Source of the DNA: an uncultured Gammaproteobacteria bacterium
GTDB taxonomy: Bacteria > Patescibacteriota > Microgenomatia > 2-02-FULL-39-11
Length of the DNA: 56,696 nt
Direction: 5' to 3'
Assembly: GCA_964354025.1 (NCBI GenBank)
Contig: CAYGXQ010000006.1
Span: 1-56,696, forward strand
The position numbers and the translations under genes were made by a program. A model generated the notes under the pieces. That model saw only the letters and a program-made list of their open reading frames with translations, was not told the DNA's origin and did not search any database. Numbering within the stretch: the stretch's first letter is position 1; each line of letters opens with the position of its first letter. Below are positions 28,603-56,365 of this stretch, one piece after another.

Positions 28603-29969
28603 CTTTTATTTAATTCCGTAACCAGTTTTTCCGCTTCCGTGGCCAGGTTTTTATCATTCTCCGCCATATTTTTCTCTTCGTCATCCAACCATTGATTGGC
28701 TTTCATCCTTGTATTTATCCTTCTGGCGTTACTCAATCTGGTGTTCAGCAGGTTCACCAAGTTCGTTAATTTATACTGATCAACTCCGTCTGCCTGTTTA
28801 AGCGCCTCCCAGGAAGGCAATATTTTTTCTAAATTCTCAATCAAGCTTTGCCAACTGTCTGTCTGCTCCTTGGAATAATTCGGCGGCACGTAGCCTCCGA
28901 AATGGACAACAACCGCCTGCACCGGACAACCGTCTATCTCTCCCAAGACTGCCGACAATCCAATGTCCTGGTATTGATCGGAAAAAAGGATTTTTTGGGT
29001 ATCCGGAAATTCCAGGAGATTGTCCAAAAGCTCGTCCGCTTCGTAAAAACCGCGGCTGTAGACTTCGGCGAAAATGATATTACGGTAGCCTGATTGTCTG
29101 ACGGCTTTTTCCAAAGTCATTCCGCTTCGGGTAGCATCCGGCGAAAAATCGTCATTTTTGATCATTGCTTCTCCGCGGATTTTGGCGGAAGCATCCAAAA
29201 GAGACTGGTATTTATACTCTTTCCGCTTTTGTTCAAGTCTTTTTGCATTTAAGAGTCCGATAAATTTTTGAGGATCCAAAGTAGTGGTATGGGCTAAAGA
29301 GAAATCAGCGATCGTATCCCGCCAGCTCTTTTTATATTCTTCCTGCTCTTTCCAGGGAATTACATAATGAATATCATTGAGACTGACCAATCCCAACTCA
29401 TACCTCGAATCTAAACTGGCTTTCCGGTTATCACCCATTACAAAAACAAAACCCTGCGGAATGGTCATTTTCTTGCAGTCAGACAGATAGTCTCCGCCGT
29501 AAGTCGAACGGGCTTTGGCAATATACGGTTCGGTTAAGAGTTTGCCGTTGACGGAAACGAAACCGTCACGAAGATCAATTGTATCCCCGGCTTTACCAAT
29601 CACTCTTTTTACAAAACCGGCATCTTCACCGTATTTTTCTCGGGATAAACCTTCTGTTTTTCTGTTTTGGAATTCGACGATATCACCGTTTTGCAAAGTA
29701 TAGTCAAAAAGATGTTTATCGAAAATAGATAATCCCGAGGGGTATTTTTTCATCTGCGGCCAGGCGACAATCTCCTGAGCTCTAACTAAATCATTTGCTC
29801 CTACTCCTTTGGGGAAAGTCGGATACATGCTGCCGGTTCCGGCTATCATGATTGATTCTTTTTTGACGCCGATTTGGATAAGAAAATAATTGAAATAAGG
29901 AACTAACGAAATAATTAAGACAATTGTCGAGATAAAAATAGAAAAAATAAGGAGTATCCTTTTTACCAT
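28599..29969 (-). CDS. lepB: Signal peptidase I fused to a CAP-like domain
   Basis: GSMYPT, VKRVIG, GDNR..SLDSR; C-terminal half has CAP-like LNAKR...YQDIGLS...VVVHFG. Confidence 0.8.
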   Translation of the reverse strand: MVKRILLIFSIFISTIVLIISLVPYFNYFLIQIGVKKESIMIAGTGSMYPTFPKGVGANDLVRAQEIVAWPQMKKYPSGLSIFDKHLFDYTLQNGDIVEFQNRKTEGLSREKYGEDAGFVKRVIGKAGDTIDLRDGFVSVNGKLLTEPYIAKARSTYGGDYLSDCKKMTIPQGFVFVMGDNRKASLDSRYELGLVSLNDIHYVIPWKEQEEYKKSWRDTIADFSLAHTTTLDPQKFIGLLNAKRLEQKRKEYKYQSLLDASAKIRGEAMIKNDDFSPDATRSGMTLEKAVRQSGYRNIIFAEVYSRGFYEADELLDNLLEFPDTQKILFSDQYQDIGLSAVLGEIDGCPVQAVVVHFGGYVPPNYSKEQTDSWQSLIENLEKILPSWEALKQADGVDQYKLTNLVNLLNTRLSNARRINTRMKANQWLDDEEKNMAENDKNLATEAEKLVTELNKR

Positions 29970-29988
29970 AACGCCTAAGTGAAGTTAG

Positions 29989-30089
29989 TACTGTATTTCG
30001 TGAATATTCCGGTATAAAGATTTTTCTTCGAACCTCTGTACTGATCTATCACGGCACTGATAACGCCGCGAAATTAACGAAATACAGTA
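29989..30089. mobile_element. 101-bp MITE, 13-bp perfect TIR TACTGTATTTCGT, TTAG target duplication
   Basis: ttag at 29985-29988 and 30090-30093; related to 36044-36144. Confidence 0.85.
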
Positions 30090-30129
30090 TTAGTATAGGA
30101 GAAAAATCAGGGGATGTAAACCAATATTA

Positions 30130-30783
30130 TTAGGCTGAGTAGGCTTTTTTCCTGAAAAATAAACCGACTGAAAGAGCGGTCGCCAAACCACCGAAGGAAA
30201 GTATCCAATGTTCGGGACCGGCTTTCGGGACTGAAGGAACAACTGGCGGCTTTTCGATGCAAAACTGGCTTTCATCATGGTCTTTTTGGAATGAAGTATC
30301 CGCGTCTGCGATATTTACCGGACAAACGACTGATTTTTCCGCCGGCAAGACCGCCTGATGGACAATTCTGGCTTTGACGTCAAAAGTCCTTGTCGTACCG
30401 CCATAAAGATTATCAACGGTAAAAGTCAAAGTTCGGGAAGAATTGTCGTAATTGCCCGGACCGGACATGAAATCAATAAACTGGGGAATTTTGTCAACGA
30501 CCGTCACCCGATCAATCGTCTCATCACCGGTATTTTTGATAAAAAGACGGAAGGTAACAATGCCGGTCGGCCGATACTTGGGATCGGATAAACCGAGGTT
30601 GTCGACAAAGATTCCTGTAGCCGGATTCATGACTTTTTTATCCAGTAAAACCTGGGCTGCTTGGGGACATTGGACACCGCCGCCATATACCGGCACGCAA
30701 CCGCCACTGGCTGATACTCTAGTGGCTTTTGAGGCTAAAGATAGAAAAAATGTTGCCAAAAAAATGAAAAAAGTTTTTTTCAT
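30130..30783 (-). CDS. Secreted DUF11-like protein with sorting signal VPKAG
   Basis: Signal peptide; IKNTG...VVDKIP; VPKAG + TM + RKK tail. Confidence 0.78.
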   Translation of the reverse strand: MKKTFFIFLATFFLSLASKATRVSASGGCVPVYGGGVQCPQAAQVLLDKKVMNPATGIFVDNLGLSDPKYRPTGIVTFRLFIKNTGDETIDRVTVVDKIPQFIDFMSGPGNYDNSSRTLTFTVDNLYGGTTRTFDVKARIVHQAVLPAEKSVVCPVNIADADTSFQKDHDESQFCIEKPPVVPSVPKAGPEHWILSFGGLATALSVGLFFRKKAYSA

Positions 30784-30874
30784 AATTGATTTTGGCGATT
30801 ATAGCACCTATAGTTTACCTTGTCAAGCGCTATAGGTTATGGAAATCGTGAATTAAATCAGTTAAAATTAGAAA

Positions 30875-32107
30875 ATGAAACCGAAGCTATCCCCTTTCAG
30901 AGCGCTGCAATTCCATAATTATCGTCTTTTTTTTATCGCTTACCTCATTTCCCGAATTGGTGCGGAGATGCAGGCCGTTACCCTTAATTGGCACATCTAC
31001 CAGATGACTAATACCACTTGGTCGCTGGCTTTAATCGGACTATCCCGGTTTATCCCGATTATCGTGTTTTCCTTAATTGGCGGTATGGTGGCTGATATCA
31101 TTAACCGCAAAATAACACTCATCATTTCCCAGATCTGCCTGACTTTTATTGCCTTACTGTATTTTGTAACAACCGTAAACGGTACGATTACGCCGCTGAT
31201 TATCTATATTTTAGTAGCTTTGGGAGCAATCGTTGCCTCATTTGATACGCCGGCTAGGCAATCTATCCTTCCTTCAATTATTCCCAAAAAGTATTTTATT
31301 AATGCCGTCGGCCTCAATACGATTATGTGGCAGACGGCCGTTGTTTTGGGACCGAGCCTGGCCGGATTTATGATAGCCGGCATGGGTGAAAAAGGAGTCT
31401 ACCTCATTAATACTCTCTGTTTTCTTGCATCTATAATCGCCCTTTTCGGCCTCCATCCGACAAAAACAGTCGTGGAAAAACCGGTTTCCTTCAACTTGGC
31501 TTCCATATGGGAGGGTTTATCTTTTGTCAAAAATTCCCCGATCATCTACTCAACTATGCTTCTGGATTTCTTTGCCACTTTTTTTGCTTCGGCGACCGTC
31601 CTTCTGCCTGTCTTTGCCAAGGATATCCTTAAAGTCGGCCCGCAAGGATTAGGCATCTTATACGCCGCTCCGTCTCTGGGTGCGATCCTGGCCGGTCTTT
31701 TCGTCTCTTCACTCGGACATATCCGCCATCAAGGCAGAATCCTGATTATTTCCGTCTTTGTTTACGGTCTGGCAACCGTTTTATTCGGTATCACCAAATC
31801 TTTCCCTTTGGCTCTGGTCTTTTTGGCTTTGACCGGCATGGGTGATGTCGTCAGTACAATTATCAGAAACACGATCCGCCAGTTGAAAACCCCGGACCAC
31901 CTGCGCGGCCGGATGATTTCCGTCAATATGATCTTTTTCATGGGCGGGCCGCAGTTGGGAGAAGCCGAAGCTGGAATATTGGCGGCCTTGGTCGGAACTC
32001 CGGCTTCCGTGGTGGTTGGCGGAGTCGGTACTTTGGTAGCGACTGCTTTAATCGCTATACTGGTCCCGAAACTGCGAAAGTATCACGGCGATGAAGTTGT
32101 CGTTTAA
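30875..32107 (+). CDS. MFS transporter (EntS/DHA3-like)
   Basis: GGMVADIINRK, FDTPARQS, TPDHLRGR; about 12 TM. Confidence 0.9.
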   Translation: MKPKLSPFRALQFHNYRLFFIAYLISRIGAEMQAVTLNWHIYQMTNTTWSLALIGLSRFIPIIVFSLIGGMVADIINRKITLIISQICLTFIALLYFVTTVNGTITPLIIYILVALGAIVASFDTPARQSILPSIIPKKYFINAVGLNTIMWQTAVVLGPSLAGFMIAGMGEKGVYLINTLCFLASIIALFGLHPTKTVVEKPVSFNLASIWEGLSFVKNSPIIYSTMLLDFFATFFASATVLLPVFAKDILKVGPQGLGILYAAPSLGAILAGLFVSSLGHIRHQGRILIISVFVYGLATVLFGITKSFPLALVFLALTGMGDVVSTIIRNTIRQLKTPDHLRGRMISVNMIFFMGGPQLGEAEAGILAALVGTPASVVVGGVGTLVATALIAILVPKLRKYHGDEVVV

Positions 32108-44299: not shown

Positions 44300-44866
44300 T
44301 TATAACCCCAACTCTTGGCTTTCTCCTTGCATTGCTTTTAAGGCCATGCCGATAAAATCCGGCAGTTTAATCCCCAGTTTTTCCCCGCAAAGAGCAATTT
44401 GCTCCCGGCTAGCGCCGGCGGCAAAACCTTTGTTATTCCATTTTTTCTGGACCGACTCAACGGTTACTGATAATAACTTTTTGTCGGGACGAACCAATGT
44501 TACTGCCACAATCAGTCCCGTCAGTTCATCACAGCAGTAAAGCGACCATTCCATATTGTTTTTCGGTTCCGGACAACTTTCAACATATTTCCATCCGTGG
44601 GCATAAATGGCATTGATAATATTTTCACCAACGCCTTCTGTTTTTAACCAGGAAACAACTGTCACCACATGTTTTGAAGGGTCATTTTTGGTCAGTTCGT
44701 AATCGGCATCATGCAAAAGTCCGGCGATCCCCCAGGCTTCCTCATCTTCCTTGAAATGCTTGGCAAGCGCTCTCATGACTGCTTCCACCGCATAACAATG
44801 CCGTCTCAAGTTCTGATTTTGCATATGCTTATGAAGCAGATCAAGAGCCTGTTGTCTGTTGTACAT
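44300..44866 (-). CDS. HD-domain hydrolase (HDIG-type)
   Basis: RHC..VEAVM, GLLHDADY, DELTG. Confidence 0.87.
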   Translation of the reverse strand: MYNRQQALDLLHKHMQNQNLRRHCYAVEAVMRALAKHFKEDEEAWGIAGLLHDADYELTKNDPSKHVVTVVSWLKTEGVGENIINAIYAHGWKYVESCPEPKNNMEWSLYCCDELTGLIVAVTLVRPDKKLLSVTVESVQKKWNNKGFAAGASREQIALCGEKLGIKLPDFIGMALKAMQGESQELGL

Positions 44867-46421
44867 TTTTAAACCTTTCTATAATAAATTTTTTATCCTG
44901 ATCCAATAAAAACCAGGCGGCTTTCGGCCCGTGAGTTTTTCCAATTAGAGACAGGTATATTGCGGCAAAGGCCTCTTTCACCGGAATATTCTTTTTTTTG
45001 GACAATTGATAAAGTTCCTGCTGCAACTCCCCTGCCTGCCAGTCTTTTTTCTCCAAAAGTATACCAACCCCGGATAAATATTCTTTCTGTGGAGCGTTTA
45101 AATTGCCTGCTTCTTCCGGAATATCTTTATTAACCGCATACACAATATCGGAGGGAGCAAAATTCGCAAGCCAAACTTTGGCGTATTTTTCCCTTTCGTG
45201 CAAAATATCCAATTCGGCGGGTAGTAATTTTTCCCCTTTAATCCCGGTAAATTTCTGCACCAGATCTACATTGGCAAGCTGCAGATAATTGGCTACATCG
45301 CGGAATCTGGGCAAAAAGACCGGCTTTTTGGGCGGCAATTTATTAATTTGCGACATAACATACGCGCTGGATAAGTTTTCGTCGGAACCCGTGATGTAGG
45401 CGTTCCAACAGCGGTCATACTCGTCAAAAAGATCAGGGATAGCCATCGTCTCCACCGGATCAAATTCGATTGCCTGACGGTAATCCGTCCGGGTAAAAAG
45501 AAACCTGCCGATTTCCGCGGGTATTAATTTGGTCAAATCGCGCGCTTTCAATCCCAAGCCTTTTGAGGAGGACATCTTTTTACCGCCGATAAGGAAAAAT
45601 TCATAAGGTAGATTATATGGGTTAGGAATATGAAAAACCTCCTCACAGAGTGCTTTTGCAATATCCCTGGAACCGCCGGCTGAGGAATGATCTTTACCGG
45701 CTCCCTCAACAGTGACTCCCATCACTTTCCAATGCGCCGCCCAATCCACTTTCCACGGCAGTTTACCGTTACCGTCAAATGGACTCATCTCACCGGTATA
45801 ACCACAACCTTTAGCCCAAGTGACCATTGACGGTTCACATGTATATTTAACGGTTTTGCCGTTCCATCCGTGCACTCTGGTCGTGCCTAATTTTTGGCAT
45901 TTTTCGCAGGTAACCTGAAGCGGCAGCCAACCCTTCTCCCTTTTCCTGCTGCCGCTGACCTTTTGGTAAATATCCTGGATTTTCTCGGCGCTGTCCAAAG
46001 CTTCCCTGATGACACCGTTGAATTTACCTTCGTGGTACATATCCCACGAGGAAAAAAACTGTGCCGCCACACCCAGACTACGCAAAACTTTCTGAAAATC
46101 AGCCGTAAAATACTCACCGAAACTCTTATAACCCTCCTCCGGAGAAGGCGCCAAACGAAGAGAATATCCCAAGTATTGGGAGAATTTATCTGCCAGTTCC
46201 GGTGGGAGTCCGTCTATCGGATCAAAGTCATTTAAAACATAAGTCGATTTCACGGAAACGCCTTCCGCCAAGAGCGCCCGAAAGACCAGGTCATGAACCA
46301 ACGGCCCGCGAAGCGAACCGGTATGGGCAAAGCCGCTCGGTGTAAACATGTCATCCACCCAAAAGGGCTGATATTTTCCGCTTTTAATGATCTCTTTAGC
46401 GACTTTGTTTGCCCAAAACAT
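44841..46421 (-). CDS. lysS: Lysyl-tRNA synthetase, class I
   Basis: TPSGFAHTG, KLPWKVDW, GKDH, KMSSSKG, GPK. Confidence 0.95.
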   Translation of the reverse strand: MFWANKVAKEIIKSGKYQPFWVDDMFTPSGFAHTGSLRGPLVHDLVFRALLAEGVSVKSTYVLNDFDPIDGLPPELADKFSQYLGYSLRLAPSPEEGYKSFGEYFTADFQKVLRSLGVAAQFFSSWDMYHEGKFNGVIREALDSAEKIQDIYQKVSGSRKREKGWLPLQVTCEKCQKLGTTRVHGWNGKTVKYTCEPSMVTWAKGCGYTGEMSPFDGNGKLPWKVDWAAHWKVMGVTVEGAGKDHSSAGGSRDIAKALCEEVFHIPNPYNLPYEFFLIGGKKMSSSKGLGLKARDLTKLIPAEIGRFLFTRTDYRQAIEFDPVETMAIPDLFDEYDRCWNAYITGSDENLSSAYVMSQINKLPPKKPVFLPRFRDVANYLQLANVDLVQKFTGIKGEKLLPAELDILHEREKYAKVWLANFAPSDIVYAVNKDIPEEAGNLNAPQKEYLSGVGILLEKKDWQAGELQQELYQLSKKKNIPVKEAFAAIYLSLIGKTHGPKAAWFLLDQDKKFIIERFKNVQQTTGS

Positions 46422-46435
46422 AATTCTATTATAAC

Positions 46436-46459
46436 AAAAACCCCGCCTTGGCGGGGTTT
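46436..46459 (-). terminator. greA terminator
   Basis: AAACCCCGCC-aa-GGCGGGGTTTTT. Confidence 0.75.
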
Positions 46460-46481
46460 GGTTGTTGTTAAATTTTTTTAT

Positions 46482-46946
46482 TTACTCAATATTTATTATT
46501 TTGTAGTGTATCTTCCCCGCCGGCGCTTCCACTTCCACTTTTTCGCCCACCTTTTTGCCAAGCAATGCCTTACCCAAAGGTGAAGAGTGGGAGATTTTCT
46601 TTTGCATGGGATCGGCCTCCCATTCACCGACAATGGTGAAGGATTCTTTTTTGCCGTTTATATGGACAGTGACTTTACAACCAACGTCAACTTTAGCTTT
46701 GGAATGAACCGTAATTACCTTGGCTTCATGAAGAACCTGTTCAAGCTCGGCAATCCGGCCATCCATAAAAGCCAAATCCTGTTTGGCGGCCGTGTATTCG
46801 CTGTTTTCCGTCAAATCGCCCTGGCCGCGGGCTACCGCCAGCCGGTTGACGGCTTCCGGCCTCTTTTTATTCACCAGATTGTCATATTCCTCTTTAAGCT
46901 GTTGCAACCCTTCACGGGTCACCAGTATCTTTTGTTGATCAGTCAT
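46482..46946 (-). CDS. greA: Transcription elongation factor GreA
   Basis: GDLTENSEY, IVG..EAD, SPLGKAL, PAG. Confidence 0.96.
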   Translation of the reverse strand: MTDQQKILVTREGLQQLKEEYDNLVNKKRPEAVNRLAVARGQGDLTENSEYTAAKQDLAFMDGRIAELEQVLHEAKVITVHSKAKVDVGCKVTVHINGKKESFTIVGEWEADPMQKKISHSSPLGKALLGKKVGEKVEVEAPAGKIHYKIINIE

Positions 46947-47035
46947 ATGCTTATCTTTTAATAAAAAAATCCCCCTTTTTATTAATTGTTCTTGGGGAAG
47001 AAATCAGGCAGATTTCTGCTTCTTAATACCCAGTA

Positions 47036-47064
47036 AATATACTCTTTCGAAAACTTATTGTCAA
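47036..47064 (-). promoter_or_regulatory. greA sigma70 promoter
   Basis: TTGACA-17-TATATT. Confidence 0.65.
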
Positions 47065-47097
47065 TATCCTATAGCTACGATATAATGCTAAATAAAG

Positions 47098-47171
47098 GCC
47101 CCCATCGTCTAGCGGCCTAGGACGATACCTTCTCAAGGTATAGATCGTCGGTTCGAATCCGACTGGGGGTA
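47098..47171 (+). tRNA. tRNA-Glu (anticodon CTC); CCA not encoded
   Basis: Acceptor GCCCCCA/TGGGGGT; anticodon arm ATACC-TTCTCAA-GGTAT; T arm GTCGG-TTCGAAT-CCGAC; TATAAT at 47081. Confidence 0.93.
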
Positions 47172-47182
47172 CTAAAAAAATC

Positions 47183-47244
47183 ACCGGCCTGCCCCGTGGA
47201 TTGCGAAGCAATTTTTCGGGGTTCGATTCCGGTACGCGCTACCA
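47183..47244 (+). pseudogene. 3' fragment of a second tRNA interrupted by a 34-nt palindromic insert
   Basis: ACCGG[47188-47221]TTCGATT-CCGGT-ACGCGCT-A-CCA. Confidence 0.65.
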
Positions 47245-47248
47245 ACAT

Positions 47249-48352
47249 TCAGGCAATCTGTTCCCAGGGATAGTTTTTATTTCCAAAATGTCCATATCTT
47301 GCAGTTTCCTGGTAAATCGGACGCTGCAGATTTAATTTTTCCAGAATATCACCTACGGAAAAATTCAATAAATTATCCGCGAAATCAGAAATTATTTTAA
47401 AATTTTTCTTTTCCGTGCCAAAACAATCGATTTGTTTGTCAATTGGTTCTCTTTGTCCTATCACATAGGCCACCCTGACTTCACATTTTGAGGCTAGTTT
47501 ATGGGCTACAATATTTTTGGCTAAATACCTGCAGGCGTAGGCTCCGCTTCTGTCTACTTTGGTCGGATCTTTTCCGGAAAAACCTCCTCCTCCATGCCTT
47601 CCCATCCCCCCATAACTATCGACAATAATTTTCCGTCCGGTTACCCCTGTATCTGAAGCCGGTCCGCCGATTTCCCATTTACCGGTGCCGTTTACGATAA
47701 TTTTATGAATATCCGGCAATTTTAATTTATATTTTGTCAAAACAGGAAGTATTACATACTTAATCAATTTTATTTTAACTTCCTCATTGGGAATTTTAGG
47801 GTCATGCGGAACGCCGATAATAACGTGTTCAACTGATTTTGGACGGCCGTTCTCATAAATAATTTTTACTTCGCTTTTACCGTCAGGCCGTAGAAAAGAA
47901 AGTTTAGCTGACTGACGCATTTCATCCAGTCTTTCCACAAGTTTGTGCGCTAAAGTAACCGGCAAAGGCATAAATTCCGGTGTTTCATCCGTGGCATATC
48001 CGAACATCATTCCCTGATCGCCGGCGCCCCCGCTGTCCACACCGACAGAAATATCAGGTGATTGCTGGTGAATATAGATGGAAACCGGTGATTTGTAAGT
48101 AAAATTATAAATATCTTTGGTATAGCCTAATGATCTGATAACCTTGCGTGTAAGTTTCTCATAATCCAGCTTTTTGGGACAGGTTACTTCTCCCGCCAGG
48201 ACAATGCGGTTGATTGTCACTAACGTCTCAACCGCCACTCTGGATTTTGGATACTGTCTGATCGCTTCATCAACAATCGCATCTGATACTTGATCGCAAA
48301 TTTTGTCAGGATGCCCTGATGCTACTGATTCGGAGGTAAAAGATGAAATCAT
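47249..48352 (-). CDS. metK: S-adenosylmethionine synthetase
   Basis: FTSESV..GHPDK, GAGDQG, GGG.FSGKD, YGHFG. Confidence 0.97.
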   Translation of the reverse strand: MISSFTSESVASGHPDKICDQVSDAIVDEAIRQYPKSRVAVETLVTINRIVLAGEVTCPKKLDYEKLTRKVIRSLGYTKDIYNFTYKSPVSIYIHQQSPDISVGVDSGGAGDQGMMFGYATDETPEFMPLPVTLAHKLVERLDEMRQSAKLSFLRPDGKSEVKIIYENGRPKSVEHVIIGVPHDPKIPNEEVKIKLIKYVILPVLTKYKLKLPDIHKIIVNGTGKWEIGGPASDTGVTGRKIIVDSYGGMGRHGGGGFSGKDPTKVDRSGAYACRYLAKNIVAHKLASKCEVRVAYVIGQREPIDKQIDCFGTEKKNFKIISDFADNLLNFSVGDILEKLNLQRPIYQETARYGHFGNKNYPWEQIA

Positions 48353-48405
48353 AAAGCTTACTATATCTTTTTAGGTCTTTATTATCAAGCGCTATAATCA
48401 AAGGT

Positions 48406-48435
48406 GTAACCTTGTCAACTCCCGGGGTTGTTAAT
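48406..48435 (+). repeat. Cassette-boundary site A
   Basis: gtaaccttgtcAAC-tcccggg-GTTgttaat. Confidence 0.85.
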
Positions 48436-48470
48436 ATAGCCATCTTTAACAAATATCAAAAAAACTACTC

Positions 48471-48499
48471 TTGACCAACTAAATATATTTCTATACACT
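48471..48499 (+). promoter_or_regulatory. Promoter of a probably leaderless transcript
   Basis: TTGACC-17-TACACT, 8 nt before ATG 48508. Confidence 0.55.
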
Positions 48500-48507
48500 G
48501 TAGCTAT

Positions 48508-48738
48508 ATGAAAAATAAATATCTTTTAGTCAAATTACAGAAAAAATATAAGGATGGGGGCTATGCTTTGGTATCTCTGGAAAAAGGCCAAGTATTTGCC
48601 TTCGCAGATAACTTATCCAAACTATATGAAATAATTGACGCAAAAAATATTGAAGATGAAAACAAAACGGTAATGTATGTCCCGCCGCCTAATGTAAAAC
48701 ATGTCTTTCACATTTCCTTATCAATACGGTTTCATTGA
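48508..48738 (+). CDS. DUF5678-like small protein
   Basis: KKY..GGYAL...G.V.A.AD.L..L; overlaps the protease gene. Confidence 0.6.
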   Translation: MKNKYLLVKLQKKYKDGGYALVSLEKGQVFAFADNLSKLYEIIDAKNIEDENKTVMYVPPPNVKHVFHISLSIRFH

Positions 48739-49114
48739 AAATCGTAAAATTCCTTATCCAATTGTTTCCATATATCTTGATACTGTCCGCGGCAGAAGGT
48801 CCTTCTCGTTTATCATGGATACGGGCGCCGATAATCTGACTCTCCCGCATCATATGATTTTTTTGTTGGGCTTAAAGAAAAAAAATCTTAAAGAAAGCCG
48901 GTCACAAGGAATAGGATATAATCTAGTAAAAACATGGGAAAGTAAAATCATCATCGGTTTTTGCGGATTATCTTTTCCGGTACACTGTTCTTTTACTGAT
49001 AACGATAAAACCCCATTTCTGCTCGGAAAAGAAGATATATTTGATAAATTTAATCTTATTTTCGACAATGAAAACCAATCGACTGGTTTTGAAGACAAAA
49101 AGAGAAAGAAATGA
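48701..49114 (+). CDS. Retropepsin-like aspartyl protease
   Basis: FIMDTGAD and LLG..D.F motifs. Confidence 0.85.
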   Translation: MSFTFPYQYGFIENRKIPYPIVSIYLDTVRGRRSFSFIMDTGADNLTLPHHMIFLLGLKKKNLKESRSQGIGYNLVKTWESKIIIGFCGLSFPVHCSFTDNDKTPFLLGKEDIFDKFNLIFDNENQSTGFEDKKRKK

Positions 49115-49147
49115 ATAGAATTAAGACCAATAATAAGCTTTTCAAGC

Positions 49148-49198
49148 TTATTGGATTAAATCGTCAGAGTAACCTTGTCAACTCCCGGGATTAATAAT
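49148..49198 (+). repeat. Cassette-boundary site B (long form)
   Basis: ttattggattaaatcgtcagagtaaccttgtcAAC-tcccggg-ATTaataat. Confidence 0.85.
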
Positions 49199-49259
49199 TG
49201 ATAATTTTGGTTGAATTTCTAATAGATGTTGTATAATATTGACCAATGGAGATAAAGAA

Positions 49260-49643
49260 ATGAAAATTGATAGCAGTAAGGTAAAAGTCATCAATATAAA
49301 AGAGAAACTGTCTCTTTTTAAGAAATATTGGAGCCCAAAAATTATTGGGGAATTAAATGACCATAAAGTACAGGTGGTCAAAGTCAAAGGAAAATTTGTT
49401 TGGCATCACCACGCAAATGAAGATGAACTCTTTCTCGTTGTCAAAGGCCAACTAATCATCCATTTCAGGGATAAAGATCTTTTTGTAAACGAGGGAGAAC
49501 TGATCATTATTCCCCACCCGATCGAACACATGACGGAGGCAAAGAAGGAAACACACATTATCCTGATTGAGCCAAAACAGGTATTAAATACCGGAAACGT
49601 CACCGATTCAAAACTCGCCGCCAAAAAGCAGGAAAGGATATGA
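49260..49643 (+). CDS. Cupin domain protein (mannose-6-phosphate isomerase-like)
   Basis: WSPKIIGELN, FVWHHHANEDELF, EH, NTG. Confidence 0.9.
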   Translation: MKIDSSKVKVINIKEKLSLFKKYWSPKIIGELNDHKVQVVKVKGKFVWHHHANEDELFLVVKGQLIIHFRDKDLFVNEGELIIIPHPIEHMTEAKKETHIILIEPKQVLNTGNVTDSKLAAKKQERI

Positions 49644-49684
49644 TTCCAGGTGATTTTTTTTGACTTTTCAGGTATACTAATAAC

Positions 49685-49912
49685 ATGAAACAGCAACTTC
49701 TTGAGGGAATAACCGTAGATACAAAAGTCCGTTTTTGAAAACCTGTTATTTTGGGTACGCGGATACCAGTTGATTTGGTAATAGGAAAAATTGCCGGAGG
49801 AATGACCGTGGAGGAAGTGATAAAGGAATACGACTTGACGAAAAAACAGGTTCTTAATACTTTAAGATATGCAGCAAAGCTTATTGAAGAGGAAAACCTC
49901 GCTTTTGTATGA
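49685..49912 (+). pseudogene. DUF433 antitoxin with in-frame TGA
   Basis: MKQQLLEGITVDTKVRF*KPVILGTRIPV...GMTVEEVIKEY; TGA at 49736 replaces the Gly of GKP. Confidence 0.85.
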
Positions 49913-50084
49913 AAGCGGTAATTAGCACGGAATTGTCATTCTCCGATTTCCCAATGAAATGTCTACCAATCAAATTAATCTGATTGTGCTTGATCTATTG
50001 AAGAAAGTCATTCCTACTGATTATCCTGGAAATCTTATTATTCTTTCTCCGGGAAAAATCAGAATACGCAAACAGACACAATAA
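49909..50084 (+). pseudogene. DUF5615/PIN-like toxin remnant (N-terminal part deleted)
   Basis: ATGA-coupled start, then out-of-frame HGIVILRF...LIILSPGKIRIRK. Confidence 0.65.
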
Positions 50085-50095
50085 GATTTTACTGT

Positions 50096-50139
50096 ATTAA
50101 ATCGTCAGAGTAACCCTGTCAACTCATGGGGTTGTTAAT
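50096..50139 (+). repeat. Cassette-boundary site C (contains the MFS stop codon)
   Basis: attaaatcgtcagagtaaccctgtcAAC-tcatggg-GTTgttaat. Confidence 0.85.
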
Positions 50140-51342
50140 GTTTTCATTTAAATTACTTGAAACTTTGTCATATTTAGTAAGGAGTAAACCGATTAAAATA
50201 GGAAATATCGGAAGAATAAAAAGAAATTGTTTGGCAAGTAGTATCTGATCACCATACCCAATAATGATAAACAGAAAAATATTACTGAGAATTCTGGCTG
50301 ATAATAGGATAAATACCTGTTCTGCTAAAAGATAATATTTTTCACTAATATGCCTACTGTCCATATCCATTGAATGGAAGGTAACGGTTGATAACTTGGT
50401 GTTTAACAAAGGAGTCACTAAACCCGACAGGATATATACAATGATTCCGATAAGATTTTGATTTAATGCGAATATGATAATTCCCACTGATTGACCTAAT
50501 ATACCAACCCAATATCCCTGTCTATATTTATGTAATAATTTAATGGCAAAAATACTACCGATTGCACACGCTGCAAAACCTAGAGTCTGAACAGTTCCAA
50601 GTAGAAATTCTCCTTTTACTATCAGAAAAATAAGTATACCTAACATTGTTCCATATACTACATCATACATACCAAAGAAAAATTGCTGACATAATACATT
50701 TATCCAGACTTTTGACCGCTTATGCTCAATTATGTGTTTTAATGAAAAAGAGATTAGCTTATGCTCCGGTAATTTATTAAATAGGAAAAGCATTAATAAA
50801 AAAATCATACTTACTATTAAAAACAATATGGAATACCCTACATTTACGCCAAACAAAAGAAGATTACCGGTTACAGCAATTATTGCGCCACCAAGTATTG
50901 GTGCAATCGCCTGAAAGGCATTTAACACGGCCGAAGACCATCCGAAATATTTGATACGTGATTCTTTATTACTAAACGCGTACTGATTTAAATTAAACGC
51001 TGCCCAGTAAATCCCACCGCTCGAACCGCTAAGAATAGCAAGAGGAATAAGATATTGAATCGCATTTTCTTTTAATAGAAATAGAAAGAAGAAAAATAGA
51101 GTAGAAGTTCCCAAACTGATTCTTATTAAAGTTCCCGATTGTATCTTTTTAAATGACCATCCTGAAGCCATATAAAAGAACAAAAACGCCAGGTTCATTA
51201 TGATTATATAAAATAAGGTTGTTCTTAGATCGCTGTTTATGAACAAAAAAACCGTTATGAATATTCCGGAAAGTGAAGCGGCAAAGAAATCCAATCCCTG
51301 GATAAGAATCATATTTCGTTCTTCTGTATTTAAAGAAATCAT
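50119..51342 (-). CDS. MFS transporter (YqgE-like)
   Basis: About 12 TM; GGIYWAAFN..R..YFG..APILGG; AT-rich. Confidence 0.78.
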   Translation of the reverse strand: MISLNTEERNMILIQGLDFFAASLSGIFITVFLFINSDLRTTLFYIIIMNLAFLFFYMASGWSFKKIQSGTLIRISLGTSTLFFFFLFLLKENAIQYLIPLAILSGSSGGIYWAAFNLNQYAFSNKESRIKYFGWSSAVLNAFQAIAPILGGAIIAVTGNLLLFGVNVGYSILFLIVSMIFLLMLFLFNKLPEHKLISFSLKHIIEHKRSKVWINVLCQQFFFGMYDVVYGTMLGILIFLIVKGEFLLGTVQTLGFAACAIGSIFAIKLLHKYRQGYWVGILGQSVGIIIFALNQNLIGIIVYILSGLVTPLLNTKLSTVTFHSMDMDSRHISEKYYLLAEQVFILLSARILSNIFLFIIIGYGDQILLAKQFLFILPIFPILIGLLLTKYDKVSSNLNENINNPMS

Positions 51343-51365
51343 ATAATTTCAATTAAAGAACAATT

Positions 51366-51662
51366 TTAGTTAATTTTATATTTCCTCCTAACTTTATTTA
51401 TCCTTTCCTTATATTCCTCAACTTCACCGGTCTCTACATAACGATTAACCGGACGTCCACATATTTCACAAAATCCCTTGAGGATAATATCGTTTAAATC
51501 GTTGAGAAATATTTTATAATTTACAATTGTTGATTGGTAATGTGAATTGCATTTGACACAATAACAATTAGGAATGATTTTTTGTCTAAATAACTCATAA
51601 TCATTCCCATGAATTATCTTCAAATCTTCCTCACTTATTTCTATTTCTTTTTTATTTGACAT
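51366..51662 (-). CDS. Hypothetical zinc-ribbon protein
   Basis: CVKC...LNDIIL.G.CEICG..V.RY.E. Confidence 0.7.
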   Translation of the reverse strand: MSNKKEIEISEEDLKIIHGNDYELFRQKIIPNCYCVKCNSHYQSTIVNYKIFLNDLNDIILKGFCEICGRPVNRYVETGEVEEYKERINKVRRKYKIN

Positions 51663-51762
51663 CTTTATTTTATAAACTTCGTAAAACTTAGTTATCCATC
51701 GATTCTAGAAAATCCTATCCGGCGTATCCAGCAAATTGTTAATTGTGATGTCCAGGCATATT

Positions 51763-52260
51763 TTATTTGCTGTAATCGTGATATCTTCTGTATTTTCTCC
51801 CACAACCGCAGGGACAAAAATCCGTAATTTTAAGTTTTTCCAGCATATTTTTAAAAAGACGGTAATGACGCTTTATCATCGCGGTGAAGTCCTTATCCTG
51901 AAGAATGATAAGATTTAACTGTTCCAGAAAAAACCGGGTATATATTGACTGTATACCTCCTAATTCCACATGTGTTCCTTCCATTATGACGGCTATCTCT
52001 TTATCTCCATATGCCCATTTCCGGTAGAATTCCGGAGATTCCCAACCAAACCCAATAGTAGCTAAAATATCGTGCTTGCTATTTTTAGGTATCACGTTAA
52101 TCATGACCTTACAACAATCACAAGTTTTATCCAGACAATAATTTTCAATGACAAAATAATCTCCCTCCGGTACTTTGGCATCGTTCTTTAGTAATGTCAA
52201 AATATATGTTTCCTTAAGGGCAATCTCCGGAAAACATTTATGGAATGGTATGAAGTCCAT
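51763..52260 (-). CDS. Hypothetical protein with SEC-C-like C-terminal motif
   Basis: ENYC...CDC, GFGWE, CPCGCGRKY. Confidence 0.7.
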   Translation of the reverse strand: MDFIPFHKCFPEIALKETYILTLLKNDAKVPEGDYFVIENYCLDKTCDCCKVMINVIPKNSKHDILATIGFGWESPEFYRKWAYGDKEIAVIMEGTHVELGGIQSIYTRFFLEQLNLIILQDKDFTAMIKRHYRLFKNMLEKLKITDFCPCGCGRKYRRYHDYSK

Positions 52261-52321
52261 ATGTTTAGTTAAAAGTTTTTAATATCGATATTATACTGTA
52301 TAGCAAAACTAACCGAAATGG

Positions 52322-52349
52322 AACCTTGTCAACTCACGGGGTTGTTAAT
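52322..52349 (+). repeat. Cassette-boundary site D (contains the stop codon of the 52334 gene)
   Basis: aaccttgtcAAC-tcacggg-GTTgttaat. Confidence 0.85.
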
Positions 52350-53539
52350 CTGGAATCTCTATCTTGAAGCTGCGTCATCCTCCCTTGTGCCCATGTAATC
52401 ATACCTTGATATTCCCCGTCAGATGTAAAATGGATACCAGCATTGTGCAGTTTTCTGAAAATGTAAAGCGAAACTGCCAATCTGTTTCTAATCCAATCCC
52501 GTGTTTCTTGCAGTAGATTTCGTAAATCAGCTCCTTGTCTGATTGCTGATGCAAGAAACTGATCAATGGCATTATTTTCAACCTCTCCAGTTTCACCGAG
52601 CATTGATCGTATAACACCAAGGGGTAAATCGGACCTGATATGTCCTTCCATCTTGTCTCCCTCATTTTGAGAAAATGCTGCGGCAGTATAAATCAATTCA
52701 TACCATTTTTCCGGCCCTTCACAATCGGTTATTAATAATCTTCCTTTCTCTTTTAATAGATTCATTTGGGCTACTATATCAAAATAAGGCATATCTGGTG
52801 CTTGACTGACTATACCAATTGATATAGCCCGATTTTCTTCCGGTAAATCTTCTCTTCTGGTATCGTCAACAATTTTTTTTACGCCTACCTCGGGAAATTT
52901 CCTTTTCATCCTCACATATTCTTCAGAAAAATTATTATAATTACGTGGTTCTTTATTAAGTTGAGCTCCTGTCCAAAAAGAAGTCAGTTCTACTGCTTTA
53001 TCCTCTTCTCTCTTTTCACCGGGAATAACGGCGTAACATGCTCTCAACTTTCTATATGATATTCTCGCTTTACCTTCAGCAGTTTCAACAGGAAAAGTAT
53101 AGGGATCATTATATTCAAATACTGATACTATTTTCCCATCAGGAAGCAATTCTTCAACAAATAACAAATCCTTGCAATCTTCAATGTTTTTCTCAGGGTG
53201 ATATCGTGCTTCAATATACCGGTAATATCGTCTACCTTCTTGGTCTATAAAATAAGGCCTCACATCGTCGTAATCAGTTCCTGCTTCGGATAATCGCGTT
53301 ACAACCGGCTCCTGCGGAACACCTTCTCGGGTTGGTTTGATATTGTAATCCTGTGAGTAAAATGCAAAAATATCTACCCCGGTTTCTTTAGCCAACGGGC
53401 CAAATGCTTCCTTAATGGATACCGGTATAAAAGACTTATCAAGCCATTCCTGTTTTTCATACGTAGCGGACATAATCCGTCGCTCAGGTGTTTGTAACGG
53501 ACCTCGTAAAGCAGCTCCTGATTCGCTCCCAGCATTCAT
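52334..53539 (-). CDS. Hypothetical protein, about 400 aa
   Basis: Long ORF with no recognised motif; start uncertain. Confidence 0.65.
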   Translation of the reverse strand: MNAGSESGAALRGPLQTPERRIMSATYEKQEWLDKSFIPVSIKEAFGPLAKETGVDIFAFYSQDYNIKPTREGVPQEPVVTRLSEAGTDYDDVRPYFIDQEGRRYYRYIEARYHPEKNIEDCKDLLFVEELLPDGKIVSVFEYNDPYTFPVETAEGKARISYRKLRACYAVIPGEKREEDKAVELTSFWTGAQLNKEPRNYNNFSEEYVRMKRKFPEVGVKKIVDDTRREDLPEENRAISIGIVSQAPDMPYFDIVAQMNLLKEKGRLLITDCEGPEKWYELIYTAAAFSQNEGDKMEGHIRSDLPLGVIRSMLGETGEVENNAIDQFLASAIRQGADLRNLLQETRDWIRNRLAVSLYIFRKLHNAGIHFTSDGEYQGMITWAQGRMTQLQDRDSRLTTP

Positions 53540-53600
53540 ATATATTGAGTATAGATTATTTATGGATATTTTCATAAGGAAGTAAGGAGGAAAATGTTCT

Positions 53601-53630
53601 AACCTTATTAACTTCCGGAGTTACTAAGGT
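53601..53630 (+). repeat. Cassette-boundary site E (variant)
   Basis: aaccttattAAC-ttccgga-GTTactaaggt. Confidence 0.65.
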
Positions 53631-53808
53631 CTTGATTATTATACGTTCTAGCTTCGTCTATCGGGGGGATTTTGTCAAAATGATAGCTAAAAGAGAACCG
53701 TCCCCTTTCAATTGATTGTATGTGTCTTTCCAGACCCGGGTTCACCGGTCAAGAAAACATTCACGCCGGTTTTAAATATGGAAAGCGCTTGAGATTGAGT
53801 CATTTATT

Positions 53809-53994
53809 TATCAAAATGGTGAAGGAATTGACTGAATAATCCGAAACATGGTTTCCGTATCTGCTACATCTGTTTGACGCATTTTGCCGTCGCTCGCTTG
53901 CATTTTCAGTTAGTCACATTTTGTGATGACCTCACTTCCAACGGATCTTCCGACCTTCAAAAATTGCTAATTTTGTTTGTTTCCTAGTTTTCAT
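53809..53994 (-). pseudogene. Bro-N/antirepressor-like remnant
   Basis: MKTRKQTKLAIFEGRKIR...LKMQASDGKMRQTDVADTETMFRIIQSIPSP with a frame break and stops. Confidence 0.7.
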
Positions 53995-54008
53995 ATATAC
54001 CCTTCTTA

Positions 54009-55013
54009 TTATTTCTTAGCTTTCCCCAATAGTTTTTTCGTCACTTGATCAAAATCGGAAATAAATTTTTTGTCCAGCTCTCGTTTATAGAAAGTAAACT
54101 CTATCTCTGCTTTCATCTCGGCATCTACTGCGCTTACACTTCCTGCATGCTTAAGAACTCCTTTACCCATAAGGATTAGATATTCATCAAGTTTCTTAAT
54201 CCAATCAGCCATTTTCATTGCTTTTTCACTCTGGGCTTGGATTTCGGCAAAGGAAAGATAGGCGTCAACAATGCGGTTTAAAAGTTCCAACTCTTTCTCA
54301 TCAAGATAGTTTTTCGCTATATAAATATCACGTTTGATAGGATTCACCCCCGGAAAGTTCGTCATTCCCAGATTCTGCTTTGTGTGACTTGCGCGTTCAG
54401 CTATGATCTCAGCTGCAGTTTTACCTGTAACAGCAAAATGCATCTTGTTTTGTACCGTCTTAAAAAAAAGTTCTGTTTTTTCTGAATCTTTACGATAATC
54501 AATACTCGTTGCATAAATATCTGTCACTTTCTGATACAGCATCCGCTCACTGCTTCGAATATCGCGAATACGCTGTAGGAGTTCTTCAAAATATCTAGAC
54601 CTGTACCCACCTTGTTTAAGACGGATATCATCCAAGGTGAATCCCTTGATCATGTATTCTTTGAGATGCTCAGTTGCCCAAATACGAAATTGTGTACCGC
54701 GTAAGGACTTGACGCGATACCCAACAGAGATGATTACATCAAGACTATATAAAACTATTGGTTTGTCTGAAATTGCAGTATGCAAATTTTGCATATTGCT
54801 TTTTTCATCGAGTTCTCCTTCGCTAAATACGTTTTTTATATGTTTTGAAATGACCGATTGATCTCTGTCAAATAATTCTGACATCTGCGCTTGAGTCAAC
54901 CACACATTTTCATCTTCAAAGCGCACTTCTACCCGCGCCTTGCCGTCATCTGTTTCGTAGATGGTAATTTGTGTATTGGGTTGTGTGTTTTTTATTGCCT
55001 GTTTTTTAGCCAT
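54009..55013 (-). CDS. RhuM family DNA-binding protein
   Basis: VWLTQAQM.ELF, IISVGYRVKS.RGTQFR.WAT, RIRDIRSSE, AKNYL. Confidence 0.92.
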   Translation of the reverse strand: MAKKQAIKNTQPNTQITIYETDDGKARVEVRFEDENVWLTQAQMSELFDRDQSVISKHIKNVFSEGELDEKSNMQNLHTAISDKPIVLYSLDVIISVGYRVKSLRGTQFRIWATEHLKEYMIKGFTLDDIRLKQGGYRSRYFEELLQRIRDIRSSERMLYQKVTDIYATSIDYRKDSEKTELFFKTVQNKMHFAVTGKTAAEIIAERASHTKQNLGMTNFPGVNPIKRDIYIAKNYLDEKELELLNRIVDAYLSFAEIQAQSEKAMKMADWIKKLDEYLILMGKGVLKHAGSVSAVDAEMKAEIEFTFYKRELDKKFISDFDQVTKKLLGKAKK

Positions 55014-55125
55014 ATTATTTTTTATATTTCTGTTTCAAATTGTTGCTTAGTTTTATTATCCCCGACATTTTCGGAAATAATAATAAGTATATAGAAGAAT
55101 ATATTATTTATAATGTCAAAACAAG

Positions 55126-55150
55126 ATCTTTGACTCCAGAGGTTGGTAAT
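55126..55150 (+). repeat. Cassette-boundary site F (degenerate)
   Basis: atctttGAC-tccagag-GTTggtaat. Confidence 0.45.
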
Positions 55151-55152
55151 TT

Positions 55153-55203
55153 TTATTGGATTAAATCGTCAGAGTACCCTTGTCAACTCCCGAGATTGTT
55201 AAT
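55153..55203 (+). repeat. Cassette-boundary site G (long form)
   Basis: ttattggattaaatcgtcagagtacccttgtcAAC-tcccgag-ATTgttaat. Confidence 0.85.
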
Positions 55204-55293
55204 TAATATTACAATACCGTTAATATTATTGATGTTACCATGTATCGATACATGGTAACATAGAATTTTAAACTACCGATTGAAATCATTTTT

Positions 55294-55323
55294 GTATCCT
55301 TGGTAATTCCCGGAGTTGTTAAG
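55294..55323 (+). repeat. Cassette-boundary site H (variant)
   Basis: gtatccttggtAAT-tcccgga-GTTgttaag. Confidence 0.65.
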
Positions 55324-55334
55324 TTTCGATCTTA

Positions 55335-55419
55335 TGTCATCCCGAGCGAAGTCGAGGGATCTTCCAACTGGGGAAGATTCCTCCACTCATCCACTATCGT
55401 GGAATCGGTCGGAATGACA
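55335..55419. repeat. Palindromic MITE/RPE-like element
   Basis: TGTCATCCCGAGCGAAGTCGAGGGATCT...CGGAATGACA; matches 10311-10406. Confidence 0.85.
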
Positions 55420-55465
55420 ATAAAGTATACCCGACAGAGCTTCGAGGAATGCTCATAATAAATAA

Positions 55466-56365
55466 TCATTCAAACATCATCGTAATATAGCTGGTAATTG
55501 ACTGTGGAGATTGGCCGGAGATAAGAAAAGAGTCGGAAGTTTCTATCAGTTTCCCCTCTTTCACCCCAACTTTTTTCAGATAATTCAGCAAAATTGATAA
55601 AGTTGGCGGAGAATCTACGGTTACCTTGTTAATATTACCAATATCTAACCTCTCTAATATTCCCGTGCTTATCGTGTCATTTTCCTGTGCTTTTTTATGT
55701 GTTTCTTCATGGGAGAAATCCACACTGGCAACCATTAAGCAATCCATACAATTTTTTGAAAGAAAATCAGCCAGGTTATTTACTTCTTCTTTTGTTGTTC
55801 CGCTTTTGACAATAACCGGAACAATTTTTGCCGGGGGAAAATAGATTTTGAGAAAACTGACCAGGCCGCAGATGGAATGCTCCGTATCGAAGTTATCTTC
55901 CTCAATACTGGCCAATCCCTGCTTATTTATTTTATTAATCAATAACGAATCCGGTTCTAGAATTCCAAACTGCGTCTGCCATTCTCCAGCTGAAACCTGC
56001 AAATCGGCTTTTCCGTAATTTTGATGGTTCGGACCGATCAGAATAATGGTTTTTGCCTTCGGTGAAACCATTGCTAACGCATTTATAATCAAATCCCGGG
56101 CAAGCAGGTGGTGAGGAATGATCAGTCCGCGGATTGAGATTTTTTCTTTTTGGGAAAGACCCTCTTTTTCATAAACACCTTTAGTGAAAGGACAGGCAAC
56201 GTGCGTGGAAATATGATCTTTTAATTTCTGCTGAGAATAATAAATCGGAAAAGCGGCCAATCCAATAACGAGTAATAACGCCATAATTCCGATAGTGATT
56301 TTACTTTTCCAAAGCTTTAACCCAATTGGGTGTTTGAGGAATGGAGAAGGATGTGTTGTTTTCAT
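55466..56365 (-). CDS. MEMO1-family protein (AmmeMemoRadiSam protein B-like) with N-terminal TM
   Basis: IIPHH, IGPNH, EHS, ASVDFSH, TSY. Confidence 0.87.
   Translation of the reverse strand: MKTTHPSPFLKHPIGLKLWKSKITIGIMALLLVIGLAAFPIYYSQQKLKDHISTHVACPFTKGVYEKEGLSQKEKISIRGLIIPHHLLARDLIINALAMVSPKAKTIILIGPNHQNYGKADLQVSAGEWQTQFGILEPDSLLINKINKQGLASIEEDNFDTEHSICGLVSFLKIYFPPAKIVPVIVKSGTTKEEVNNLADFLSKNCMDCLMVASVDFSHEETHKKAQENDTISTGILERLDIGNINKVTVDSPPTLSILLNYLKKVGVKEGKLIETSDSFLISGQSPQSITSYITMMFE

Follow-up and report, generated by a model that had tools for sequence, protein, structure and literature searches.

Short palindromic repeats at accessory-gene joints between metK and a MEMO gene in a Microgenomatia bacterium probably belong to a REP-type family linked to Y1 transposases

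We analysed a 56,696-nucleotide stretch (contig CAYGXQ010000006.1, hereafter the window), which is contig C6 of a 60-contig assembly of 1,481,520 bases (1.48 Mb; GCA_964354025.1) from an uncultured bacterium of the Microgenomatia. Between metK and a MEMO gene the window carries a short site of the form TAACCTTGTCAAC-N7-GTTGTTAAT, present as seven good copies and one degenerate copy, all co-oriented. These sites are probably a repetitive extragenic palindromic (REP)-type family that belongs to the Y1 (HUH) single-strand-DNA transposase genes of Microgenomatia, genes that resemble the REP-associated tyrosine transposases (RAYTs), and that is here an orphan in one hypervariable islet. The original prediction had read the sites as an undescribed, integron-like cassette-capture system driven in trans by a tyrosine recombinase, and had named RAYT-associated REPs as one alternative. 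That alternative is the reading we favour: it fits best because palindrome variants flank Y1 genes in five relatives, because the motif is dispersed through the genome of another, and because the Y1 genes of the study genome have their own flank repeats, some of which form arrays as well.

Searching the window with the pattern TTGTCAAC-N7-GTTGTTAA and up to three mismatches gave six matches, all on the plus strand and all inside 48412-55322 (starts at 48412, 49175, 50116, 52326, 55180 and 55300), against a mean of 0.71 in shuffled sequences, none of 100 shuffles reaching six. A repeat search delimited a 31-nt unit in seven copies (48405, 49168, 50109, 52319, 53598, 55173 and 55293), which are 74-100% identical to the reference copy, and a 56-nt form with a 22-nt left extension in three copies (49148, 50089 and 55153), with a weak fourth at 48385. 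The repeat unit is 29 nt in its short form and 51 nt in its long form (sites s1 to s7 in Table 1), and the copies are 74-94% alike. Eight co-oriented copies had been listed originally; seven of them are good copies on the plus strand, and the one at 55126 proved degenerate and falls below the scan thresholds. The spacer is, as first described, always seven nucleotides long and variable in its letters. The conserved foot of the site is TAACC, preceded by GTAA in three of the eight copies (s1-s3). The site is an imperfect palindrome of nine pairs, with 93% of cells paired over the eight copies; stem pairs are broken in s2 and s6, whereas in s5 one pair has changed on both its sides, so that the palindrome is retained.

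At the thresholds used, the copies are confined to the metK-MEMO locus. A 28-mer scan of all 60 contigs with up to seven substitutions returned the same seven copies only, in line with the initial observation that there are none elsewhere in the window, and a blastn-short search of the site against the assembly gave no further match below E = 0.057. A looser 15-mer scan (up to two mismatches) added five weak matches on four other contigs. Two of these, at 7547 and 7751 of contig C33, look like diverged relatives of the site, and lie beside a gene pair that reads in translation as HicA/HicB-like. Having at least seven copies inside 7 kb, in a genome of 1.48 Mb, speaks against a random spread. 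The metK-MEMO family is an orphan, with seven to eight copies at one islet and no cognate Y1 gene in the assembly.

The link to Y1 genes comes from relatives. A 23-mer scan (up to three mismatches) of 401 genomes of the class gave matches in 19 genomes, including the study genome and its sister genome (G001), at about 20 places outside the study genome compared with seven for a reversed control pattern; most of these matches retain TTGNCAAC, a C/G-rich centre and GTTGNNAA. Judged from the sequences, a palindrome consisting of TCAAC, a C/G-rich centre and GTTGA brackets putative Y1 genes in relatives and scatters through the genome, a bracketing that RAYT/TnpA-REP genes are known to show and that is called a REPtron (Quentin et al. 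2018, PMC6006769). Close variants of the site palindrome flank predicted RAYT-like Y1 (HUH) genes on both sides in five genomes. In G319 (locus L064), a 226-aa open reading frame (ORF) stands between sites at 9997 and 10814 and scores 26.6 bits against Y1_Tnp, the family of IS200-like HUH transposases, and in G174 (L052), where two further copies stand nearby, 83 nt apart, sites at 1804 and 2531 bracket a 250-aa ORF that scores 24.0 bits (Pfam cut-off 23 for both). CAAC-type palindromes lie on both sides of a Y1 gene in G003, which belongs to the family of the study genome, and in G087 and G103; the downstream copy in G003 has TCAACTCCCGGGATT, 15 consecutive bases, in common with s2. The Y1 gene of G093 has a related flank form with a different centre.

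Flanking by a repeat is the rule for these genes. A search with the G319 protein found the Y1 subfamily in 212 of the 401 genomes, usually in several copies. Of 30 such loci retrieved, the ORF was located in 28, and 27 of these have a word of 10 nt or more, in most cases palindromic, that recurs in the two 220-nt flanks. A hidden Markov model of eight Y1 proteins, searched against ORFs from 28 loci with the motif, detected Y1 genes at the two seed loci only, so most motif copies are not adjacent to a Y1 gene. On a quick tree of Y1 proteins, G319, G003, G087 and G263 form a clade with 99% support, all four carrying CAAC/AACC...GTTG/GGTT palindromic flanks by reading, and no Y1 protein of the study genome falls inside it. 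The automatic repeat labels missed two rows of this tree, which voids the clustering statistic and leaves the tree as a descriptive one.

Dispersal of the motif is seen in G038, where a 19-mer scan gave 16 places on eight contigs compared with four for the control pattern. Many of these copies are inverted doublets 25 nt apart, and two doublets lie between genes of a mevalonate operon. Scatter regardless of accessory genes, which the original prediction had set against a cassette array, is thus found in G038 and not in the study genome, where strain breakpoints lie at site edges. At one G038 place (locus L062, contig C37, 436-998), inverted doublets forming 20-nt-stem hairpins flank a 167-aa zinc-ribbon-like ORF that is situated between thiolase-like and isopentenyl pyrophosphate (IPP)-isomerase-like genes of the core mevalonate operon (names from a reading of the translations).

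The assembly of the study genome has six Y1_Tnp genes, each with its own repeat on both flanks, and at four of the six this repeat is a short palindrome. The palindrome of the Y1 gene on contig C28 (CACTCCCGGAGTG) is the nearest to the site core among the six families. Three Y1 proteins, two from this genome and that of G319, match the NCBIfam model 'REP-associated tyrosine transposase' with E values of 4e-11 to 4e-16, below its cut-off. Two of the six flank families form arrays that parallel the one at metK, both on contig C11 (locus L072): the C1-type family as a co-oriented array of six copies at 17867-20623, with genes that read as RhuM-, NYN- and KilA-N-like in translation, and the C39-type family as a co-oriented array of four copies at 28300-31066. 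Some copies in both arrays have common long left extensions, as in the metK-MEMO array. The sister genome lacks most of both array regions. At one joint its homology resumes right after a degenerate repeat; at a second, the four repeats and 4.5 kb of the study genome correspond to a single repeat and 0.8 kb in the sister genome. Several REP families in the study genome, three in number, each mark joints of small accessory blocks that differ between close relatives.

At metK itself, three haplotypes could be compared. G001 is the only same-genus relative in the genome collection; it is 85-96% identical to the window up to 48398 (95.8% in the metK part) and again from 55470, in the MEMO-like gene. 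Its locus has exactly one copy of the site (L009 12341-12373). Between metK and this copy lie about 2.3 kb with three other genes, which look secreted, one with a metalloprotease motif (reading of translations), and 365 nt of unrelated sequence separate the copy from the MEMO gene. The third haplotype is a metagenome contig of 3.6 kb, L095, which matches the window at 90-95% identity (95.5% in the metK part) over 44811-48435, up to and including the final base of s1; the five bases that follow all differ, and there the contig stops. As aligned, the three haplotypes appear to have the flanks and one site copy in common, with divergence beginning immediately to the left or right of the site, which is the outcome that the strain comparison proposed with the original prediction would look for.

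Wider searches added little to this comparison. A strict 23-mer scan of the genome and metagenome contig collections gave no match. A 19-mer with two undefined letters gave 16 single matches in the genome contig collection, one being the sister genome contig and the others taken as chance, and the 19-mer without such letters matched two metagenome contigs, L095 and an unrelated one (GC 0.50, no homology). A family-level synteny search with the MEMO protein gave a match in seven of 21 genomes, those beyond the sister genome being 30-35% identical and too distant for locus comparison. Two public sediment metagenome runs contained 11-12% of sampled words, and at 85% likeness yielded only contigs of 150-400 nt at a depth of 2-5; joints in these reads had short sides (21-43 letters) or undefined content and were not at sites, and no conclusion is drawn from them. 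A large gene to the right of the MEMO gene is cut off in both assemblies, by the end of the window (56696) and by that of L009 (14935), at points no more than about 1 kb apart, and these contig breaks, together with the break of L095 five nucleotides past s1, suggest strain heterogeneity or repeats around the locus.

Several observations weigh against assigning the sites to a REP-type family. None of the six Y1 genes in the assembly is flanked by the array's repeat and no Y1 gene lies within the window. The earlier suggestion to look for a co-occurring Xer/Int or Y1 gene found both kinds in the assembly, two Xer-like and six Y1 genes. The family is not dispersed in the study genome, where it has its seven to eight copies at one locus and the two diverged ones on C33, and in G038 neither of the two Y1 genes is flanked by the 16-copy motif. 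CAAC-type flanks are not confined to the clade of G319, since G103, G093 and G174 lie elsewhere on the quick tree. The hairpin is weak, with six pairs and a 3-nt loop, and the 93% pairing of the palindrome does not exceed shuffled controls in a covariation test (333 of 500 shuffles reach it), a single pair being changed on both sides. Single-strand folds of 76 nt around the sites (seven on the plus strand and three on the minus strand) have z values from -1.31 to +1.10, no better than shuffles. The breakpoint in L095 consists of five bases at a contig end. Finally, the foot has TAACC in place of the 5' GT[AG]G found at the hairpin foot of canonical REP classes, subclass 2.6 and class 3 being described without GT[AG]G (PMC6006769).

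If the sites are REPs of this kind, known TnpA-REP and IS200/IS605 chemistry (PMC6006769, PMC8266576) suggests how they may act. The core would form a short hairpin on single-stranded DNA, and a Y1 enzyme acting in trans would recognise this hairpin and cut and rejoin the DNA beside it. That enzyme might be a cognate since lost, or else one of the six paralogues, among which that on C28 has the most similar hairpin. Copies would multiply locally in one orientation, and the repeat edges would become points at which DNA is gained, lost or swapped, giving the repeats a causal role in the rearrangements.

A stronger claim, which we regard as unlikely, is that REP hairpins and Y1 HUH enzymes of candidate phyla radiation (CPR) bacteria constitute a gene-cassette system for defence, toxin-antitoxin and transport genes that dispenses with a tyrosine recombinase, the enzyme acting in trans or having been lost here. 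Y1 would cut the same strand beside two co-oriented hairpins, release a single-stranded circle of repeat plus cargo, and paste it beside another copy, and arrays would grow by one cassette and one repeat, in an integron-like manner but by peel-and-paste chemistry of the IS200/IS605 type; this is the mode by which IS200/IS605 insertion sequences (ISs) transpose single strands (PMC6006769). The presence of one site per joint, always co-oriented, speaks for such cassettes, as do unrelated cargo on either strand, gene-less units that are little more than the repeat (55127-55203 and 55204-55323), differences among the three haplotypes at both repeat edges, three arrays each from a different repeat family in one genome, and the crowding of the copies, unlike a random intergenic spread. 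Yet no excised circle or empty-site read was seen, in two public runs that hold low-depth fragments only, no cassette was met a second time elsewhere with its repeat, no cognate enzyme was found in the assembly, and copies that are only 74-94% alike, with broken stems in s2 and s6, are not what such a system leads one to expect. A passive origin, moreover, could give the same layout.

By passive origin we mean that the islet was imported wholesale from, or exchanged with, a REP-rich relative, or that repeats settled in tolerant 3' gaps, and had no part in the rearrangements. Most sites do stand just after the 3' end of a module (s2, s3, s4 and s7), which is usual for REPs; the REP doublets of G038 occupy consecutive intergenic gaps of one operon; and the islet has a low GC content. 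However, the sister genome and L095 each carry a copy at the locus, so the repeat is probably older than the present cargo, and homology among haplotypes ends at repeat edges rather than at random points. We consider passive decoration or import quite improbable.

The evidence does not support a recombination site of the integron or Xer type, and the tyrosine-recombinase reading as a whole is largely refuted. It holds that the repeats are core sites, either integron-like attC/attI sites or dif-like Xer sites as in integrative mobile elements exploiting Xer (IMEX) and pdif modules, at which cassettes are captured in trans. Imperfect inverted arms around a constant 7-bp spacer, direct repeats in one orientation as would remain after circle insertion, and two Xer-like recombinases in the genome are all in its favour. 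Those recombinases, the assembly's only two of the tyrosine type, are on contigs C21 and C31, which upholds the statement that the window has no integrase; the best matches of both are XerC/XerD models, and no integron integrase was found in the assembly, scores against TIGR02249 being 124 and 69 bits compared with a cut-off of 265. Moreover, the one-site sister genome has a counterpart of like length and score for each of them, plus a third partial one. No serine recombinases were found in the assembly. The 76-nt folds score like shuffled sequence and so give no attC-like structure. On either side of the array GC skew is negative (with 1.4 kb available on the right) and the genes are on the minus strand, so there is no sign of a terminus, and ORFs run on both strands, units 1 and 2 on the plus strand and units 3 to 5 on the minus strand. 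The view that the site is neither an attC nor a canonical dif therefore stands, whereas tyrosine-recombinase cassette capture does not: in relatives the family is multi-copy, dispersed, doubled, and found bracketing Y1 genes, not integrases. We rate this reading as very unlikely.

Three further identities were considered and rejected: a dif site (no skew switch, and multi-copy relatives), a CRISPR array (the copies stand 0.1-2.2 kb apart), and att repeats of tandem integrative elements (the array has no integrase within it or nearby).

A regulatory role is highly unlikely too. The site could in principle be the operator of a dimeric repressor, a common promoter -35 box in its minus-strand arm (GTTGACAA), or a transcription terminator, and its palindromic form, the TTGACA within the arm, the TTGACA box that follows the upstream repeat in the REPtrons of the study genome, and a terminator-like score for s3 are compatible with one or another of these. 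However, s3 is the only one of the eight sites that is terminator-like, and promoter-like matches are not enriched in the region (37, compared with 30.5 +/- 5.0 in shuffles). Sites keep their orientation independently of gene direction, occur at 3' ends as often as at 5' ends, and also delimit gene-less units, all of which tells against a regulatory role, including that of the repressor operators that had been offered as a second alternative.

REP/RAYT systems are a known kind, from which the present case departs in its lineage, its non-canonical foot, its low copy number and its co-oriented arrays at joints that resemble those of cassettes. Most work on such systems has been in Proteobacteria, on repeats that are dispersed and non-coding. 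The described REPtrons (PMC6006769; Corneloup et al. 2021, PMC8266576) likewise have a palindrome on both sides of a Y1 HUH gene, with a separate family for each gene, several families per genome, and intergenic copies that are sometimes inverted doublets. Unlike them, the present family has a TAACC foot, copies numbering from units to tens and not hundreds, no cognate gene, and one co-oriented array at module joints where bacterial interspersed mosaic elements (BIMEs) are dispersed or alternating, and the Y1 proteins here stay below the NCBIfam RAYT cut-off. Palindromic units make up 12% of variable loci in E. coli, where the passages of Touzain et al. (2010, PMC2884548) that treat them do not present them as cassette joints.

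IS200/IS605 elements and their transposase-less derivatives have the same Y1 HUH chemistry, and co-oriented hairpins could be the left and right ends of a mobile stretch; the Y1 genes here, however, are bracketed by inverted copies instead of co-oriented IS ends, and nothing here was identified as an element with distinct paired ends or with a target-site motif. In integrons, intI encodes a tyrosine recombinase that carries an integron-specific insertion, an attC is a 57-141-nt site that folds as a single strand through R''-L''/L'-R' pairing, cassette ORFs mostly point in one direction downstream of attI and the cassette promoter (Pc), and a cluster of attC sites lacking an integrase is called a CALIN. 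The metK-MEMO array resembles integron arrays and CALINs in its co-oriented sites, one per joint, its small and unrelated accessory modules with some gene-less units, and the way the conserved site sits, for its greater part, at one end of every unit, but it has no attC fold, IntI or attI/Pc, its ORFs lie on both strands, and its site family is linked to Y1 genes in relatives. With dif, IMEX and pdif sites it has in common the imperfect inverted arms, the short spacer and modules without an integrase, but the arms are not dif-like, there is no skew switch and relatives have many copies, where a chromosomal dif is a single copy at the replication terminus, the point of the GC-skew switch; in pdif modules, moreover, site orientation alternates.

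We found no literature description of REP arrays as gene-cassette joints, nor one of REP/RAYT systems in CPR bacteria, although the supplementary taxon tables of PMC6006769 may include CPR genomes. If the repeats cause the rearrangements, they would be a main means by which tiny genomes with few classical mobile elements gain and lose genes, and a testable single-strand alternative to integrons. If they are passive, this is an ordinary REP cluster in a lineage for which none was found described.

Table 1. Features of the metK-MEMO locus, in window coordinates
Feature	Position	Strand	Basis
metK, conserved left flank	47249..48352	-	ORF; name from reading of translation
Site s1, short 29-nt form, adjoining the metK upstream region	48407..48435	+	Pattern, repeat and genome scans
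Unit 1: DUF5678-like ORF (48508-48738) and retropepsin-like ORF (48701-49114)	48436..49147	+	Both below Pfam cut-offs
Site s2, long 51-nt form (22-nt left extension and core)	49148..49198	+	Repeat and genome scans
Unit 2: cupin (49239-49643), DUF433 gene with in-frame TGA (49685-49912), 41-aa remnant ORF (49959-50084)	49199..50088	+	ORFs, Pfam
Site s3, long form, containing the stop codon of the minus-strand MFS gene	50089..50139	+	Repeat and genome scans
Unit 3: MFS transporter (50119-51342), 98-aa DUF5679-like ORF (51366-51662), 165-aa ORF (51763-52260)	50140..52320	-	ORFs, Pfam
Site s4, short form, containing the stop codon of the 413-aa ORF	52321..52349	+	Pattern, repeat and genome scans
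Unit 4: 413-aa ORF (52334-53575), no family match	52350..53599	-	ORF, Pfam, NCBIfam, PADLOC, protein atlas
Site s5, most diverged good copy, 74% to reference copy	53600..53628	+	Repeat and genome scans
Single copy of another repeat family, that of the C39 Y1 gene flanks	53689..53707	+	Assembly scan
Unit 5 gene: RhuM-family protein, PADLOC candidate defence family PDC-S05	54009..55013	-	Pfam, PADLOC
Degenerate core copy	55127..55150	+	Read from letters; below thresholds of pattern, repeat and genome scans
Site s6, long form, starting 3 nt after the degenerate copy (gene-less unit)	55153..55203	+	Repeat and genome scans
26-nt perfect palindrome in the ~90-nt gene-less unit between s6 and s7	55234..55259	.	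Read from letters
Site s7, last copy, 143 nt from the MEMO gene stop	55295..55323	+	Pattern, repeat and genome scans
AmmeMemoRadiSam system protein B / MEMO-like gene, conserved right flank	55466..56365	-	ORF, NCBIfam

The sites are confirmed to separate gene modules on the ORF map, the stop codons of the minus-strand MFS and 413-aa orphan ORFs each being contained in one, and to lie in low-GC DNA, with a GC content of 0.32-0.39 in the array and 0.41-0.46 in the flanks. The gene content first proposed holds in part. Cupin_2, DUF433, MFS_1 and RhuM score above Pfam cut-offs; DUF5678 and the aspartyl protease, like DUF5679, score below them, and the 41-aa piece that had been called PIN has no Pfam match. 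The 413-aa, 165-aa and 98-aa ORFs had no match in PADLOC, NCBIfam or the protein atlas. At Rfam gathering thresholds the window has one match, a tRNA-Glu at 47098-47171. The C39-type copy at 53689 stands within the array, where some 380 nt below the RhuM gene are non-coding.

The in-frame TGA of the DUF433 gene is at 49736-49738, presumably the position of a conserved glycine of the DUF433 family, and a single G-to-T change would explain it; there is no other sign of TGA recoding. The 41-aa ORF after this gene resembles what we take to be the tail of its usual PIN-like partner, and together they probably represent a toxin-antitoxin pair that has decayed.

Short elements with inverted ends of the GTCATYSCGAG...CGCAATGAC type occur at 55333-55425, between the last site and the MEMO gene, as well as at the matching place in the sister genome (L009, about 12405-12660) and beside the C33 copies (about 7600-7740). 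On contig C31 (L002 265-1856), the gene for a 301-aa Xer-like recombinase is followed by a DUF5678-like ORF (reading of the translation) and a retropepsin-like one, which has 27% identity with the protease-like ORF of array unit 1.

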